A stretch of 64,000 bases of DNA from Escherichia phage Ge15. The stretch's first letter is position 1. Every line of letters starts with the position of its first letter. The notes under the pieces were generated by a model. That model had not been told where the DNA came from. It ran no database searches and saw only the letters and a list, made by a program, of their open reading frames with translations. Positions 2,848 to 13,915 of this stretch are shown here, piece by piece. Location of the stretch: the sequence record PP359696.1; one strand, written 5' to 3'. The translations under genes and the position numbers were made by a program.

Positions 2848-3560
2848 ATGAAACTAATCTTTTTAAGTGGTGTAAAGCGTAGTGGAAAAGATACTACTGC
2901 AGATTTTATTATGAATAATTATTCTGCAGTTAAATATCAACTTGCTGGTCCTATTAAGGATGCATTGGCTTATGCATGGGGTGTATTTGCAGCAAACACT
3001 GACTATCCTTGTTTAACTCGTAAAGAGTTTGAAGGAATTGACTATGATCGTGAAACTAATTTAAATCTGACTAAATTAGAAGTAATTACGATTATGGAAC
3101 AAGCATTTTGCTATCTTAATAGTAAAAGCCCAATTAAAGGTGTGTTTGTTTTTGATGACGCAGTTAATTTCGTAGCATTTAACAAGATTGCTGACGTTAT
3201 AAATAATATTGAAGATCAATGGTCAGTCCGTCGTCTGATGCAAGCCCTAGGTACGGATTTGATTGTTAATAACTTCGACCGCATGTATTGGGTAAAATTA
3301 TTTGCTTTAGATTATCTTGATAAATTTAACTCAGGTTATGATTATTATATCGTTCCTGATACTCGTCAAGATCATGAAATGGATGCGGCTAGGGCGATGG
3401 GTGCTACAGTAATTCATGTAGTTCGTCCTGGTCAAAAATCCAATGATACACATATTACAGAAGCTGGATTGCCAATTCATGATGGCGATTTAGTAATTAC
3501 AAACGATGGTTCTCTTGAAGAACTTTTTTCTAAAATTAAAAATACACTAAAGGTACTATA

Positions 3561-4330: not shown

Positions 4331-4588
4331 ATGAAAACTTTCAAAGAGTTTGCTACAAAAACTACTATCACTGAATCTTCCCACGGTATGGAAGTAAAGC
4401 TTGGAATGGCTTTAGCTGAAGCTGAGCGTCTTTTCTCTCGTATTAAAGAACTTGCTGCTGCAGTCGATCCTTCATCTTTTAAAGGAGACCAAACTAAAGT
4501 TAAAGCACTTTTAGCATTATGCTCAGATGCAGGAGAAATTGCTAAAAATGGTTCTAAGATGAAGAAACGATTAGAAGATTTAAAATAA
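4331..4588 (+). CDS. internal-protein-like small protein with capsid-targeting-like N-terminus (IPI locus)
   Basis: 85-aa ORF starting MKTFKEFATKTTITE, in the position of T4 ipI next to 57B. Confidence 0.6.
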   Translation: MKTFKEFATKTTITESSHGMEVKLGMALAEAERLFSRIKELAAAVDPSSFKGDQTKVKALLALCSDAGEIAKNGSKMKKRLEDLK

Positions 4589-9627: not shown

Positions 9628-9658
9628 GTTTACAAACTCTTGGGAGTAGAGTATAATA
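9628..9658 (+). promoter_or_regulatory. early promoter with stem-loop (GTTTAC ... TATAAT)
   Basis: GTTTACAAACTCTTGGGAGTAGAGTATAAT with GGGAGTA/TACTCCC inverted repeat bracketing the -10. Confidence 0.65.
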
Positions 9659-9701: not shown

Positions 9702-10295
9702 ATGAACATGCTGAAGAAAATTGTTGAGTTTATTCGCACTAAACTTGGTTCTGCTATGGCTAAAAATTTATCTGTTGAAGAACAGTATACTGCTGCGGCA
9801 GCAAAACTACTTGATAAGATTAAAGATCTAAAAACTGCTTCTGTTAAATCTATTAATGAAGAAAAACGTATTCGTGAACTTATTGTCGAAAAGAATCGAC
9901 AGGCCGAATCAAAAGAGCGTGAAATTCGCAAGCTTCTTTCTGAAGGTCAAGATGTAACAATGCATGCTAAACTCGGCTTGCTATATCGTCGAACAGCTGA
10001 ACAGTTGACTACTAAAGCTGATGGTTATGCTGAAATGCGAATTGAAATCGCCAAGAAAGTAGTTGAATTGGATGATGCTCGCCAAGAACTTGCAGTTAAA
10101 TTGGAATATATCCGTGAAACTCGTGCAGCAAATGCCCTTGGAATTAGTACTGCTGATGATGTAGTTGAAATTGCAGCGCTAACTAAAGTTGATATTGAAG
10201 ATACTCTCGCCCGAGTTGAAACCTTTAATGGTAATATTTCTGGGGTTGAAACTACCTCTGCCGATGTTCAGGAATATATTAATTCTCTGAAATAA
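9702..10295 (+). CDS. coiled-coil protein, unknown function
   Basis: 197-aa ORF, strongly helical and charged heptad-like composition; function not assignable by eye. Confidence 0.55.
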
Positions 10296-10300
10296 TGATA

Positions 10301-10316
10301 AGGGGCTTCGGCCCCT
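10301..10316 (+). terminator. GC hairpin with UUCG tetraloop (terminator / RNA-stability element)
   Basis: AGGGGCTTCGGCCCCT; downstream U-tract is weak. Confidence 0.45.
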
Positions 10317-10336
10317 ATTACTTGGAGTAAGTAGGA

Positions 10337-10942
10337 ATGAAAATGCAAAGTGATTTCAATTCAATGTTTGAAGAGTTCCAAAGACAGGTTGATGTTCCAG
10401 ACCAATTACTAAATGCTCTTAAACGCATGGCAGAAGGACGTAATTACTATTGGGGGTCTTCATATGAAACTGATGAAAGTCTTTCTGGATTTTATAAAGG
10501 TAAAAAGTCTTTAATACGTCCTGGAATACTTATTAACAGTATTGAATCAATTCATTCATTGACATGTGATTTTGATGTTGAATTTACTGATTTCATTTCT
10601 CCTGAATGGACGGTTTGTTATTTAAACGACGATTATGATTATCTTGGCGTTTATAGTTTAAGTGACGCATGGTTTAAACGTAATTTACAAAAGTCAAATT
10701 TATTCTATATTGATACTACTGTAAAATTTCAGGGCAAGAAATATTTCTTTACTCTTATAGTTGATTCTGAAACGAAGCATGAAAATAAACGTATTCTTAG
10801 TAAAAAGAATATCTTAACTATTGTCGATGATCTTTTTGATAAATTCGTAGAAAATCCTAATTTTGAAAGCGATTTATTATTAGAAAAATTTGTTAAGGAA
10901 TGTAGAGAATATGTCAAAGCCATCACTATACCTTCCAAGTGA
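10337..10942 (+). CDS. hypothetical protein (C-terminus shares the FVKECR tail with downstream paralogs)
   Basis: 201-aa ORF ending KFVKECREYVKAITIPSK. Confidence 0.55.
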   Translation: MKMQSDFNSMFEEFQRQVDVPDQLLNALKRMAEGRNYYWGSSYETDESLSGFYKGKKSLIRPGILINSIESIHSLTCDFDVEFTDFISPEWTVCYLNDDYDYLGVYSLSDAWFKRNLQKSNLFYIDTTVKFQGKKYFFTLIVDSETKHENKRILSKKNILTIVDDLFDKFVENPNFESDLLLEKFVKECREYVKAITIPSK

Positions 10943-11303
10943 ACCTGTGAAGTATGAACTAAAGCGTCAGCTAATTCCTACTGATGTATTAATAGGTCCT
11001 GTGACAGCTATATCATTTGTAATTCTATTGATTGTTGGAATGGTTATAGACTTTATGACTGATATTGAATCTGACGTAATATTTTTGTTAGTATTAATTC
11101 TTCCATTAGTAGTTCCATTTTTATTGGTACCTGTAAATTGGGTAGGATATTGGTATCAAGGAAGGCATTATCGTAAACGTGTACGTGAATGGAAAGCTCA
11201 GTGTAAAAAGATTAAAAAGGAACACCAGCTTAAACTAAATATGTATGAATTTAATGAAATTATGAAATTTGTTAAGGAATCACGATGCAAAAGCCAAAAC
11301 TAA
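10911..11303 (+). CDS. small membrane protein, paralog family member
   Basis: 130-aa ORF from ATG 10911, two predicted TM helices, basic tail ending MKFVKESRCKSQN. Confidence 0.55.
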   Translation: MSKPSLYLPSEPVKYELKRQLIPTDVLIGPVTAISFVILLIVGMVIDFMTDIESDVIFLLVLILPLVVPFLLVPVNWVGYWYQGRHYRKRVREWKAQCKKIKKEHQLKLNMYEFNEIMKFVKESRCKSQN

Positions 11304-11659
11304 ATAAAGTCAAATATTCTTTTTCTGAGTCATTTTTAATTTTTGCTGTGGCGTTGGCTGCAGCTCTTGCTGGTAGTCTTATTGGATTAATGATTGACTG
11401 TATTATTTTAAACATCCGCAGTAACGTCAGCGGTATAGTAGATATAATAGAAGTTTGGAGTGAACTTCATTATACTATAGCAATTTCATTATTTTCATTC
11501 TTTAGTATCATTTTATATTTTCATTATGATAATTTTAAAATAAATTGGCAAAGAAAAAAGGATTACAAAATACAATTAAAAGAATATAATAACTACATGT
11601 CTTATATTGAAAATGAATCAATGAAAGAATTCGTGAATGATTGTAGGAAAATCAAATGA
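11285..11659 (+). CDS. small membrane protein, paralog family member
   Basis: 124-aa ORF, TM helices, tail ending KEFVNDCRKIK; stop overlaps next start. Confidence 0.55.
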   Translation: MQKPKLNKVKYSFSESFLIFAVALAAALAGSLIGLMIDCIILNIRSNVSGIVDIIEVWSELHYTIAISLFSFFSIILYFHYDNFKINWQRKKDYKIQLKEYNNYMSYIENESMKEFVNDCRKIK

Positions 11660-12144
11660 TTTTAAAAACTCGCTGGTATGATTTAGATGATGGGGACGAT
11701 GGCATTTCAGTCGATAGAGTTGACTGGAGCGGCTGTTCTGAAGATACAAAGAAACGATTAATTAGGGAGTTTAGAATGGGATATCAAGCAGTTAAGCCAT
11801 CTACTGTAACAGATGATAAATTCGTGTGTATTCAAAATGGTCGTGCTAAGTTAACGAACGCTGATTGGTTCACAGATAAGAAGGTTATTCTGTGGTATAT
11901 TATTAGTTTTCCTGTGACATCATTTGTATTTTGCTTCTTTGGAGAAAGTCCAGTAGGCAGAACGGAAGATTGGATTCTTTTAATTATACTTGTTAATATT
12001 TTTACAGCAGCAGTACTATCAGGAATATGGTGCGTGTTCATTGAAATGCCATGGCGGTTACGTAGGCAGCAAAAGATTTTTGATGAAAAGAAATATACTC
12101 AAAATTTAAATAATTTTATCACTGAATGCAGGAAATTAAAATGA
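11656..12144 (+). CDS. membrane protein, paralog family member
   Basis: 162-aa ORF, TM helices, tail ending NNFITECRKLK. Confidence 0.55.
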   Translation: MILKTRWYDLDDGDDGISVDRVDWSGCSEDTKKRLIREFRMGYQAVKPSTVTDDKFVCIQNGRAKLTNADWFTDKKVILWYIISFPVTSFVFCFFGESPVGRTEDWILLIILVNIFTAAVLSGIWCVFIEMPWRLRRQQKIFDEKKYTQNLNNFITECRKLK

Positions 12145-12581
12145 AAACATTATCAGCTGGTATTATCTTTATGACAGAAGATAAAGATTTATTTATGGGA
12201 CGAGTTACTGGTTCTCGTAAGCCTGGAATGATGGCACATCGCTGGGATATTCCAAAGGGGCGTGTAGAAAATTCTGATTTAAGCGCATTAGATGCAGCAC
12301 GAAGAGAATGCTCAGAAGAGACTGGTTTTAACAATTATAATCCAGACCTTCTAGAAGACCTAGGTGTATTTAAATATTCTAGTAATAAAGACTTACAGTT
12401 ATTTTATTATACGATTCCAGTAGAGCATGAGATGTTCAGAAATTGCCATTGCGAGTCTTATTTTGAAAATAAAGATGGTGTTATGATTCCAGAGATGGAT
12501 GCTTTTGCCCTTATTCCTCGTACTCAGTGGCAATATGTGATGGGTCCTTCACTTTACCGAATAATGAACAGCCTCTTTTAA
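12126..12581 (+). CDS. nudE: Nudix hydrolase NudE
   Basis: 151-aa ORF with Nudix box GRVENSDLSALDAARRECSEETG directly upstream of e, as T4 nudE. Confidence 0.85.
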   Translation: MQEIKMKTLSAGIIFMTEDKDLFMGRVTGSRKPGMMAHRWDIPKGRVENSDLSALDAARRECSEETGFNNYNPDLLEDLGVFKYSSNKDLQLFYYTIPVEHEMFRNCHCESYFENKDGVMIPEMDAFALIPRTQWQYVMGPSLYRIMNSLF

Positions 12582-13112
<531 letters not shown>

Positions 13113-13116
13113 AGTT

Positions 13117-13146
13117 GTTTACTTTCTCCTAGAACTGTGATAGTAT
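13117..13146 (+). promoter_or_regulatory. early promoter with stem-loop
   Basis: GTTTAC, 18-nt spacer, TAGTAT; inverted repeat ACTGTGA/TCACAGT brackets the -10. Confidence 0.5.
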
Positions 13147-13171
13147 ATTCACAGTTACTTGGAGGGATAAA

Positions 13172-13588
13172 ATGACTCGTATTAATTTGACTTTAGTATC
13201 TGAACTTGCTGATCAGCATTTAATCGCAGAATACCGTGAATTGCCACGTGTTTTTGGTATAGTTCGTAAACACGTGGCAAATGGTAAGCGGGTTAAAGAT
13301 TTTAAAATATCTTCCGAGTTTATTTTAGGTTCTGGTCATGTTACGTTCTTTTACGATAAGTTAGAATTTTTGCGAAAGCGTCAATCAGACATTATAACGG
13401 AATGCTTAAAACGTGGGTTTAGTATAAAAGATACTGAAGTTCCTGACATCAGTGATATTCCAGCAGAATGGAAAAATGATTATAATCCATGCAAATCAGC
13501 TATTAAATTGAGTCAACAACGACTCGATGAAAAAATTTTAATGAAGCCACACTGGTACAAGTATTACGGCAAAAATATTTACATTTAA
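13172..13588 (+). CDS. denV: endonuclease V (pyrimidine dimer DNA glycosylase) DenV
   Basis: 138-aa [32 protein letters not shown]..., recognised as T4 endonuclease V. Confidence 0.95.
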
Positions 13589-13597
13589 AGGAAACAT

Positions 13598-13915
13598 ATG
13601 AAAACGTATAAAGAATTTATTGCAGAATCTGCCGCAGGACAACGTGTAGAAGGCGGTTATATTTGGATTGAAGAAGTTGAGCCACCTAGTCGTACTTCTA
13701 CTGGTAAATGGAAAATTACTGTCGATGGTCCTGGCGGAAAACGCAGAACTTTAAAAGAAATTAATGGATATTATAGTGAAGCTCTTTCAGACGCGGGCAC
13801 TTATATGATGCAAATTATGATTAAAAATCCAGAAAATCGTTTTGCAGCTAGAGTTTTCCGCCGCATTGGAAATAAACTTTACGATGCATATTCTAAAAAT
13901 TTTCCTAAAGCATAA
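13598..13915 (+). CDS. internal protein (IPII-like) with capsid targeting sequence
   Basis: 105-aa ORF with N-terminus MKTYKEFIAE, the canonical T4 CTS. Confidence 0.7.
   Translation: MKTYKEFIAESAAGQRVEGGYIWIEEVEPPSRTSTGKWKITVDGPGGKRRTLKEINGYYSEALSDAGTYMMQIMIKNPENRFAARVFRRIGNKLYDAYSKNFPKA

Follow-up and report, generated by a model that had tools for sequence, protein, structure and literature searches.

A shared C-terminal tail in the e.5-e.2 gene array of Escherichia phage Ge15: a probable peptide motif whose coding DNA would also serve as ribosome-binding site and recombination site

Introduction

The genes e.5, e.4, e.3 and e.2 of bacteriophage T4 have been catalogued since 1993, are non-essential, and form an array that is ordinary T4 'dark matter'. 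The T4 reference names these open reading frames (ORFs) e.5 to e.2, and the 1993 GenBank record L13089 names them msp4 to msp7. In this work we analysed their counterparts in Escherichia phage Ge15 (PP359696.1), located at positions 10,337 to 12,144 of a stretch of 64,000 nucleotides (nt) that we call the window, and we focused on a short C-terminal tail shared by the four encoded proteins. An earlier reading of the sequence alone, here called the original prediction, had presented this region as a tandem array of small membrane proteins with related basic tails. We propose that the tail is very probably a protein-level motif whose coding DNA doubles as a ribosome-binding site (RBS) and a recombination site.

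The closest described relative is the T4 array itself. In T4, as in Ge15, the genes are arranged in the order e.6-e.5-e.4-e.3-e.2-nudE-e, overlap one another and carry the tails. The two phages differ in e.2, which is frameshifted to 102 amino acids (aa) in T4 but intact with 162 aa in Ge15 and has a periplasmic loop of another allelic type; in e.3, with 120 aa in T4 and 124 aa in Ge15; and in the lack of ipII and ipIII between e and denV in Ge15.

Three other systems are useful for comparison. MinD and FtsA carry C-terminal membrane-targeting amphipathic helices. The tail resembles them as a short C-terminal amphipathic helix found on differing proteins at the cytoplasmic face of the inner membrane, but its polarity is higher, Glu, Cys and Arg are conserved in it, and integral membrane proteins carry it as well. 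In the Psp and Lia modules (PspA or LiaH with PspB, PspC and LiaI; PMC11237479), the gene of a helical-hairpin protein is likewise followed by genes of small inner-membrane proteins, whose cytoplasmic parts could recruit the hairpin protein, an interaction that is purely hypothetical here. The Ge15 locus differs from them in its lytic phage setting and in having no regulator, and e.4, e.3 and e.2 gave no match to PspB, PspC or LiaI-LiaF-TM in Pfam and NCBIfam. Finally, promoter-early stem-loops (PeSLs) mediate modular gene shuffling in T4-type phages (PMC2839356, PMC4122927); these elements are intergenic, extend from stop codon to ATG, and combine a sigma-70 promoter with a stem-loop (PMC2839356). 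The tail-coding junctions are similar in that they are short conserved gene-boundary elements of plastic T4-type regions, contain the Shine-Dalgarno (SD) sequence and start of the downstream gene, and serve as recombination sites for gene gain and loss, with the breakpoints of e.2 presence/absence lying inside the tail repeats. Unlike PeSLs, they lie inside overlapping coding sequence, have no promoter or stable structure (an intergenic early sigma-70 promoter with a stem-loop was not found at the tail junctions), and encode a peptide that appears to be selected. We rate the array as of the same sort as modular accessory-gene arrays shuffled via conserved junction elements.

No description of the shared tail or of its roles at the three levels was found in the searchable literature; the genes are known, and the shared tail appears to be undescribed. 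Since one stretch of about 20-30 nt would provide a peptide, the RBS of the next cistron and a recombination site, it would extend the PeSL idea from intergenic promoters into coding sequence.

Results and discussion

Identity of the four genes and spread of the tail motif

Judged from sequence similarity and gene order, the four ORFs are almost certainly the orthologues of T4 e.5, e.4, e.3 and e.2 (msp4-msp7). The window was assigned to a Tequatrovirus (T4-like) genome, and the 1.8-kb stretch shares 99.4% nucleotide identity with Tequatrovirus genomes (such as phages FriedrichMiescher and Sf25) and 92% with T4. Each protein matched one PHROG over its full length, namely phrog_2607 for e.5 (2.4e-108), phrog_2604 for e.4 (9e-71), phrog_2330 for e.3 (2.3e-61) and phrog_2203 for e.2 (9e-78), all four being T4-like families without assigned function. 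Using tblastn, identity to the T4 products was 84.6% for e.4 and 76.5% for e.2 (read through the T4 frameshift). As in T4, the ORFs lie between e.6 and nudE/e on one strand as overlapping cistrons. The original prediction had located the four ORFs and quoted their tails correctly, and the comparison with T4 e.2-e.8 that it suggested proved apt. The features of the array are as follows (window coordinates).

10337..10942, + strand: e.5 (msp4), 201 aa, predicted soluble; tail core FVKECR at nt 10889-10906
10886..10901, + strand: copy 1 of a 16-nt repeat, AAATTTGTTAAGGAAT; codons K-F-V-K-E, with SD-like AAGGAA upstream of the e.4 ATG at 10911
10911..11303, + strand: e.4 (msp5), 130 aa counted from ATG; two predicted transmembrane helices; degenerate tail FVKESR
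11265..11280, + strand: copy 2 of the 16-nt repeat, AAATTTGTTAAGGAAT; AAGGAA 5 nt before the e.3 ATG at 11285
11285..11659, + strand: e.3 (msp6), 124 aa; two predicted transmembrane helices; tail FVNDCRKIK, core at nt 11630-11647
11630..11690, + strand: junction of e.3 tail and e.2 head; repeated imperfectly, in direct orientation, at 12115-12174; the natural e.2 deletion has one of its ends here
11656..12144, + strand: e.2 (msp7), 162 aa, intact; tail FITECRKLK, core at nt 12115-12132
12115..12174, + strand: junction of e.2 tail and nudE head; other end of the natural e.2 deletion; AGGAAA as predicted SD of the nudE ATG at 12141

The four tails, KFVKECREY (e.5), KFVKESRCK (e.4), EFVNDCRKIK (e.3) and NFITECRKLK (e.2), follow the general form [L/I]-x-x-F-[I/V]-x-[E/D]-C-R-[K/R]. 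The strict motif [FW][IVL]x[ED]C[RK] was matched three times in the six frames of the 64 kb, and these matches are the tails of e.5, e.3 and e.2; by chance, about 0.4 matches are expected per shuffled 64 kb and about 0.005 tail matches among 125 genes. Apart from the four, the genes of the window lack such an ending, also those in overlapping pairs.

Besides Tequatrovirus, we inspected the corresponding loci in 11 further genera (12 in total), comprising Mosigvirus, Jiaodavirus, Gaprivervirus, Dhakavirus, Kanagawavirus, a Winklervirus, Pectobacterium phage PM2, Yersinia phage fHe-Yen9-01, Karamvirus PG7, Aeromonas phages 31 and Aes012, and Pseudotevenvirus RB43 and Invicta. The motif was found on about 40 ORFs belonging to at least eight otherwise dissimilar protein groups across the 12 T4-like genera, at most 16 residues from the stop codon in all but the e.5-like proteins of Pseudotevenvirus, where about 28 residues separate it from the end. 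Soluble carriers include the proteins at the e.5 position, JD18 gp114, and ORFs of P896 (109 aa), KLB31 (96 aa), PM2 (55 aa) and PG7 (117 aa); carriers with two transmembrane helices are many and occur in most of the genera inspected. A portable motif of this kind, one peptide with presumably one partner, offers a concrete handle on a block of genes without an assigned function in the best-studied phage.

We aligned 20 tails from the first six genera on the Phe residue (the window and loci L003-L009; L numbers denote our retrieved loci). The consensus is L/I(-3) x x F(0) I/V(+1) K(+2) E(+3) C(+4) R(+5) K(+6), with F or W in 20/20 tails (F alone in 18/20), I/V in 19/20, C in 15/20 and R in 18/20. 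The hydrophobic positions -3, 0, +1 and +4 (that is, i, i+3, i+4, i+7) form one helix face with a hydrophobic moment of about 0.5-0.6, showing the tail as a short cytoplasmic amphipathic helix by prediction. We set aside a role of the Cys as metal or redox ligand because e.4 orthologues have S, I, V or M there and because the hydrophobic helix face includes this position. A pattern scan of IMG/VR for FIKECRK, stop codon and ATGA returned five contigs, four of which are T4-like loci with the same gene set; in the fifth, a 222-kb contig (L015), no ORF of at least 45 aa ends at the match, which looks like chance.

Two side observations concern short terminal motifs. The tail core (e.g. NEFIEECRK) resembles the capsid-targeting sequence MKTYQEFIxE and the gp21 cleavage motif I-x-E, a likeness too short to evaluate; N-termini of the type MKT[Y/F]xEF[I/A], like the capsid-targeting sequence of T4 internal proteins, occur in the window at 4331, 4659, 8255 (MKSYAQFL), 13598, 13932 and 58907. 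In addition, many T4-like genera have, just downstream of e.3-like genes, a second family defined by its tail, with two to five small soluble ORFs in tandem (65-103 aa) ending in G-W-[V/I]-S-S-S-x-x-C and a stop codon (L003 3731-4525; L005 3691-4959; L006-L008; L018 6832-7391; L020 7407-8450; L021 6553-7576; L024 5302-5828); such arrays are absent from the window.

The tail as peptide and as ribosome-binding site

The tail-coding DNA is closely tied to the start of the following gene. The overlaps e.5/e.4, e.4/e.3, e.3/e.2 and e.2/nudE measure 32, 19, 4 and 4 nt, the e.3 stop and e.2 start overlap as ATGA, and the 11-residue extension of e.5 after its tail core overlaps the start of e.4, for which the ORF listing gives an alternative TTG start at 10890. 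In coupled cases, the distance from the motif end to the next ATG is -7 to +14 nt, and this ATG overlaps or abuts the stop codon of the tail-bearing gene. At 5-9 nt upstream of this ATG, an SD sequence is formed by the K-E codons (AAGGAA, AAGGAG, GAGGAA) or the R-K codons (AGGAAA) of the tail, so the tail is predicted to contain the RBS of the next cistron. In e.3 and e.2 the SD has shifted to R-K, and two added codons (IK, LK) restore the spacing; AGGAAA in the e.3 tail would be the SD for e.2. The junction RNAs are less structured than their shuffles (z +0.7 to +1.7), as expected of open initiation regions, and no Rfam family was found in the region, the best match being caiA (E=0.28) in the e.6 leader.

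These features invite the reading that the tail is conserved mainly as nucleic acid, being the translation-initiation region of the next cistron that was copied as the array grew, with the peptide as a passenger. The SD-like spellings AAGGAR, GAGGAA and AGGAAA at 5-9 nt before ATG recur in Tequatro-, Mosig-, Jiaoda-, Gapriver- and Dhakavirus, and the restored spacing and the unstructured junction RNAs fit as well. The same applies to the 16-nt stretch identical between two junctions and to a Mosigvirus contig that has e.3 deleted and retains the tail and junction before the next gene. However, the best-conserved residues F, [I/V], C and R lie outside the SD, and their codons vary: Arg alternates between the AGR and CGN families (AGA, AGG, CGT, CGA), Cys is TGT or TGC, Phe is TTT or TTC, and Ile and Val also vary synonymously. 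The e.3 orthologues keep F, V, D, C, R and K throughout and differ at x alone, which is N, S, I or R. The motif is also kept on ORFs without a coupled downstream gene (JD18 gp114, the P896 109-aa ORF and the KLB31 96-aa ORF), and F-[IV]-x-x-C-R persists without conserved K-E codons in Winklervirus, PM2, Yen9-01, Karamvirus and the Aeromonas phages, the distant genera having tails such as FVDYCR, FIDQCR, FVTYCR and FVESCR. Synonymous codon variation, change at x alone, retention on uncoupled genes and persistence without K-E together argue for selection on the peptide itself. In addition, the other overlapping gene pairs of the window lack the tail, which speaks against a passenger peptide and led us to reject the tail as a genome-wide junction signal. 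Conservation mainly as nucleic acid is thus unlikely. If the tail were only a legacy of duplication plus an RBS constraint, the result would be neat, yet of minor weight for phage genome evolution.

Topology and paralogy of the tailed proteins

A Kyte-Doolittle scan with a 19-residue window found two hydrophobic helices each in e.4 (aa 27-47 and 56-77), e.3 (aa 17-41 and 63-80) and e.2 (aa 77-95 and 105-129), with maxima of 3.02, 2.47 and 2.43, and none in e.5 (maximum 0.87). Acidic loops with 0-1 Lys/Arg join the helices, the termini are basic, and 9-15 Lys/Arg are found in the C-terminal regions. By the positive-inside rule, e.4, e.3 and e.2 are thus predicted to be hairpin proteins of the inner membrane with both ends (N-in/C-in), and hence the tails, in the cytoplasm, and e.5 is predicted to be soluble. 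The basic cytoplasmic C-terminal region of e.4 spans about 53 aa, and e.2 has a cytoplasmic N-domain of 76 aa. The AlphaFold2 (AF2) model of e.5, built from an eight-sequence alignment, reached a predicted local distance difference test score (pLDDT) of 57, with residues 180-195 helical at low confidence; Foldseek of this model against PDB gave no match below E=0.02 and template-modelling scores of about 0.14, which were discarded as meaningless.

Relationships among the four proteins were examined by comparing small family alignments from several genera by hhalign, single-sequence BLASTP being weak. The e.4 and e.3 families matched over 45 cytoplasmic C-terminal columns (probability 93.8%, P=1.8e-7, score 46). 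In 60 column shuffles that kept membrane and cytoplasmic composition apart, the maximum score was 23.7 and 0/60 reached the observed one, and the reversed alignment scored 13. All other pairs aligned over 9-15 tail columns or in transmembrane segments only; for e.5-e.3, e.3-e.2 and e.5-e.2, the match covers 10-15 tail columns (P 2-6e-4). The alignments therefore show e.4 and e.3 as paralogues at the sequence level, with e.2 sharing topology and tail and e.5 the tail only. A single paralogous family of all four ORFs was rejected, since similarity beyond the tail is confined to e.4-e.3. In an exhaustive HMMER search of 1.84 billion cluster representatives with an e.4 plus e.3 profile, six proteins were found, all T4-like e.3 or e.4, and word-seeded searches with e.3 and e.5 returned close relatives only.

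The e.5/e.4 and e.4/e.3 junctions appear to be copies of one another. Both contain the exact 16-nt repeat AAATTTGTTAAGGAAT, the start sequences that follow are also alike (ATGTCAAAGCCA versus ATGCAAAAGCCA), and the N-termini MSKPS and MQKPK are similar. Such homologous junctions are the footprint expected from unequal crossing-over between two tails that duplicates the intervening gene, and the array may have grown by crossing-over of this kind between two tail-coding sequences.

The original prediction fares well on these points, with some correction. It had noted the repeated junction nucleotides, which proved to be the exact 16-nt repeat, as well as the shared N-termini and three ORFs with two transmembrane helices, which are e.4, e.3 and e.2. 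Its suggestion of serial duplication or recombination fits the e.4/e.3 paralogy, the junction homology and the removal of e.2 by crossover in the tail repeats. The pairwise alignment that it proposed gave similarity beyond the tail for e.4/e.3, but e.5 shares the tail only and e.2 the tail and topology only; likewise, the 'family of small inner-membrane proteins' holds for e.4, e.3 and e.2 as membrane proteins, but e.5 is soluble by prediction and the four do not form one full-length family. Two points go beyond the original prediction: the SD of the following gene within the tail, and the spread of the motif to many other genes, which the window alone could not reveal.

Recombination at the tail-coding DNA

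Natural variants indicate that the tail-coding DNA has been used for recombination. In phages PP01 and RPN226, e.2 is absent exactly, and a hybrid e.3 tail with the e.2-type ending (…DCRKLK) is fused to nudE. The BLAST pieces of these phages overlap by 30 nt, matching window 11630-11659 and 12115-12144, and the similarity between the e.3/e.2 and e.2/nudE junctions spans about 60 nt, reaching the heads of e.2 and nudE. We conclude that a crossover inside the e.3 and e.2 tail repeats excised e.2, the tail DNA being a micro-homology used in nature.

Query coverage is below 80% in 64 of 504 related genomes. Eight such records fell into an evenly spaced sample; seven of them (T2 and RB32 included) break at query position 1323, the e.3 stop codon, and the remaining one is an isolated 14% match from a partial T4 record. 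By tblastn, e.2 was found in 447 records at at least 60% identity and e.4 in 503 at at least 80%. From these coverage and record counts, we estimate that about 12% of Tequatroviruses lack e.2. Since e.2 lies close upstream of nudE also in Dhaka-, Gapriver-, Kanagawa- and Winklervirus, deletion is more likely than insertion.

Other alleles are rearranged as well. Phage UFV06 has an in-frame e.4(1-32)::e.2(88-162) chimera, formed across a 9-nt micro-homology, CCTGTGACA, in the first transmembrane helix (TM1) and removing e.3 (L011 1512-1832). In a Mosigvirus contig, 252 nt are missing from within e.3, tail and junction being kept (L016 reverse complement, about 3300-3420), and one e.4 variant (P0111) has lost both transmembrane helices and kept the tail. 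In the reference T4, e.2 is frameshifted by a one-base deletion in an A-run (A5 versus A6 in UFV06), leaving 102 aa. We counted the e.2 frameshift, the e.3 deletion, the e.4::e.2 chimera and the e.4 without transmembrane helices as signs of dispensability. The array would thus behave as a set of removable cassettes that recombine at the tail-coding DNA. As a side observation, the out-of-frame remainder of T4 e.2 still encodes the second transmembrane helix and NFITECRKLK (L002 3200-3240 versus L011 1600-1640), and the T4 resequencing record OZ209057.1 likewise aligns as two pieces in the e.2 tblastn.

A common partner for the tails and the case of e.6

As for function, the tails could display one docking helix both on the cytoplasmic membrane face, by way of e.4, e.3 and e.2, and on the soluble e.5. 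All four tailed proteins could then bind one common partner, for which e.6 is the best candidate, and the module would act on the host inner membrane early in infection while being dispensable in the laboratory. We regard a docking role of the tail for a common partner as a tentative proposal that may well fail, and the identification of that partner with e.6 as doubtful. The explanation as a whole, which combines gene identity, protein anatomy, origin of the array, the three-level tail and docking, is the best available, and we favour it by a little over even chances.

The gene e.6 is far more conserved than its neighbours: 1106 phage records contain it, with identity falling as low as 31-33% in Pseudotevenvirus. 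A soluble motif-bearing gene directly follows e.6 in 11/12 genera examined, including the Aeromonas phages and Pseudotevenvirus, with Karamvirus PG7 and Gaprivervirus VR7 as exceptions and the Dhakavirus and Kanagawavirus loci read around e.2 only. In these proteins, 7-14 residues usually follow the motif, and the proteins at the e.5 position are connected by BLASTP matches of 1e-4 to 1e-15.

The AF2 model of e.6 (32 sequences; mean pLDDT 74) consists of an N-terminal helix, a helical hairpin of 55-60 residues (pLDDT 84-97) and short C-terminal helices. The prediction of a long helical-hairpin protein with the general shape of membrane scaffolds is solid. On the kind of fold, the results conflict. 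In a Foldseek search of PDB with this model, the top eight matches were Vipp1/PspA (probability 1.00, E 3e-3 to 1.4e-2), followed by archaeal CdvB2, but the e.6 profile search of PDB sequences gave Vipp1 only collinear and sub-threshold (E 1.5-3.6), which counts against the likeness or is unspecific. We take the PspA likeness of the model as a lead, the fold assignment being ambiguous (PspA/ESCRT-III-like or BAR-like). Small membrane partners are characteristic of PspA-type proteins (PMC11237479), so that docking of the tails on e.6 is a reasonable, though unproven, guess. With this lead, the pair of e.6 and tailed e.5 suggests a testable membrane-directed function.

A number of observations weigh against this explanation. 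Much of the K-E/R-K conservation in Tequatrovirus could result from the RBS alone. The tail is itself imperfect, the Cys being replaced in e.4 orthologues and one JD18 tail lacking the Arg; the matches confined to the tail are short, and the e.5 model is poor. A single type of e.2 deletion was seen, which may reflect one ancestral event rather than recurrent recombination. The six representatives from the HMMER search left distant relatives uninformative, and literature searches by gene name gave nothing relevant on e.5-e.2. As for e.6, the partner idea comes from synteny and one structural search: Pfam PspA_IM30 was matched by 0/32 e.6 homologues, and hhalign of e.6 against E. coli PspA gave an insignificant probability of 0.6%. 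Moreover, VR7 keeps e.3 where e.6, e.5 and the 5' part of e.4 are lost, and the tail-bearing genes of PG7 are not adjacent to e.6, both of which count against a strict dependence of the tail on e.6.

A bolder version would make e.6 a phage member or analogue of the PspA/Vipp1/ESCRT-III group, the F-[I/V]-x-x-C-R tail its recruitment motif, and the array a Psp-like module with interchangeable anchors. We consider this a long shot. If true, the module would direct a membrane-stabilising or -remodelling polymer to the host inner membrane in early infection, possibly for keeping the membrane energised after DNA injection or for resisting membrane-depolarising abortive-infection systems, and its anchors would be swapped by recombination at the motif-coding DNA.

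The original prediction had instead proposed individual membrane effectors acting in superinfection exclusion, lysis timing or counter-defence, in which case the shared tail would reflect common descent. The small, early-transcribed inner-membrane proteins are compatible with this, and patchy presence and absence together with pseudogenes and chimeras is what genes typically show that are host-specific accessories or part of an arms race. However, the four proteins showed no similarity to Imm or Sp (Pfam, PHROGs) or to holin, antiholin or spanin families (Pfam, PHROGs, NCBIfam), and searches of Pfam, NCBIfam and PDB sequences with all four gave nothing above noise. In Tequatrovirus the array lies close to the lysozyme gene, which was offered as a clue, but other genera do not keep this adjacency: in the loci examined from Mosigvirus and Gaprivervirus, the e.5-e.4-e.3 block does not adjoin the lysozyme gene, nor does e.5 in Aeromonas phage 31. 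Common descent alone also fails to explain one tail on soluble and membrane proteins that cannot be aligned, and we judge independent effectors improbable.

About equally improbable is a MinD/FtsA-type role for the tail, in which it would target the cytoplasmic face of the inner membrane as an amphipathic helix, bringing e.5 there and stabilising the hairpins with no protein partner: its place at the extreme C-terminus, the i, i+3, i+4, i+7 spacing and moment with Lys/Arg flanks, the helix predicted in the e.5 model and its presence on soluble and membrane proteins alike would suit such a role, but its mean hydrophobicity is negative (about -0.2 to -0.4) with a hydrophobic face of four small positions, the conserved Glu/Asp and near-invariant Cys and Arg are unusual for lipid-binding helices (from general knowledge of MinD-type sequences), and 7-14 polar residues follow the e.5 motif, which in Pseudotevenvirus lies 28 residues from the end.

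Surrounding genes, transcription and annotation

The features flanking the array are as follows.

9629-9657: early-type promoter-like site ahead of e.6
9702..10295, + strand: e.6, 197 aa, first gene of the transcription unit; predicted long helical hairpin
10298..10318, + strand: GC-rich hairpin with UUCG loop in the e.6/e.5 gap; putative stem_loop in L13089
12141..12581, + strand: nudE (Nudix hydrolase), final overlapping cistron; Pfam NUDIX 1.3e-13
12618-13112: e (lysozyme)
from 13172: denV

The promoter scan found no strong promoter-like site between e.6 and e.5 or at the e.5/e.4, e.4/e.3 and e.2/nudE junctions; one 10/12 match was located at 11562-11590, about 65 nt upstream of the e.2 start. 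As there is no strong promoter between e.6 and e.5, the e.5-e.4-e.3-e.2-nudE block is probably transcribed from the early promoter ahead of e.6.

The nudE start is probably ATG 12141, which shares an ATGA overlap with the e.2 stop and has AGGAAA 5 nt upstream, and not ATG 12126, the start used in RefSeq T4, which is missing from phages without e.2 such as PP01.

The element at 10298-10318 is a perfect GC-rich hairpin with a UUCG tetraloop, AAGGGGCTTCGGCCCCTAT, with no U-tract behind it on the coding strand; the terminator scan reported it on the - strand only. Rather than terminating transcription, it may serve in RNA stability or attenuation.

Public annotations of e.3 and e.4 include 'sulfurtransferase', 'phosphoserine phosphatase', 'site-specific RNA endonuclease' and 'DNA primase', and e.6 is labelled 'host specificity protein'. 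These GenBank labels, unsupported by the Pfam and NCBIfam scans, look like propagated errors.

Downstream of the array, denV comes straight after e in Ge15, followed by ip-like ORFs (window 13113-13600), and T4 has ipIII and ipII between e and denV. In several genera, a protein of about 310 aa with Pfam DUF7277 and DUF7275 recurs in the same plastic region (L018 7458-8390, L019 2556-3458, L020 8495-9463 and L021 7636-8568).

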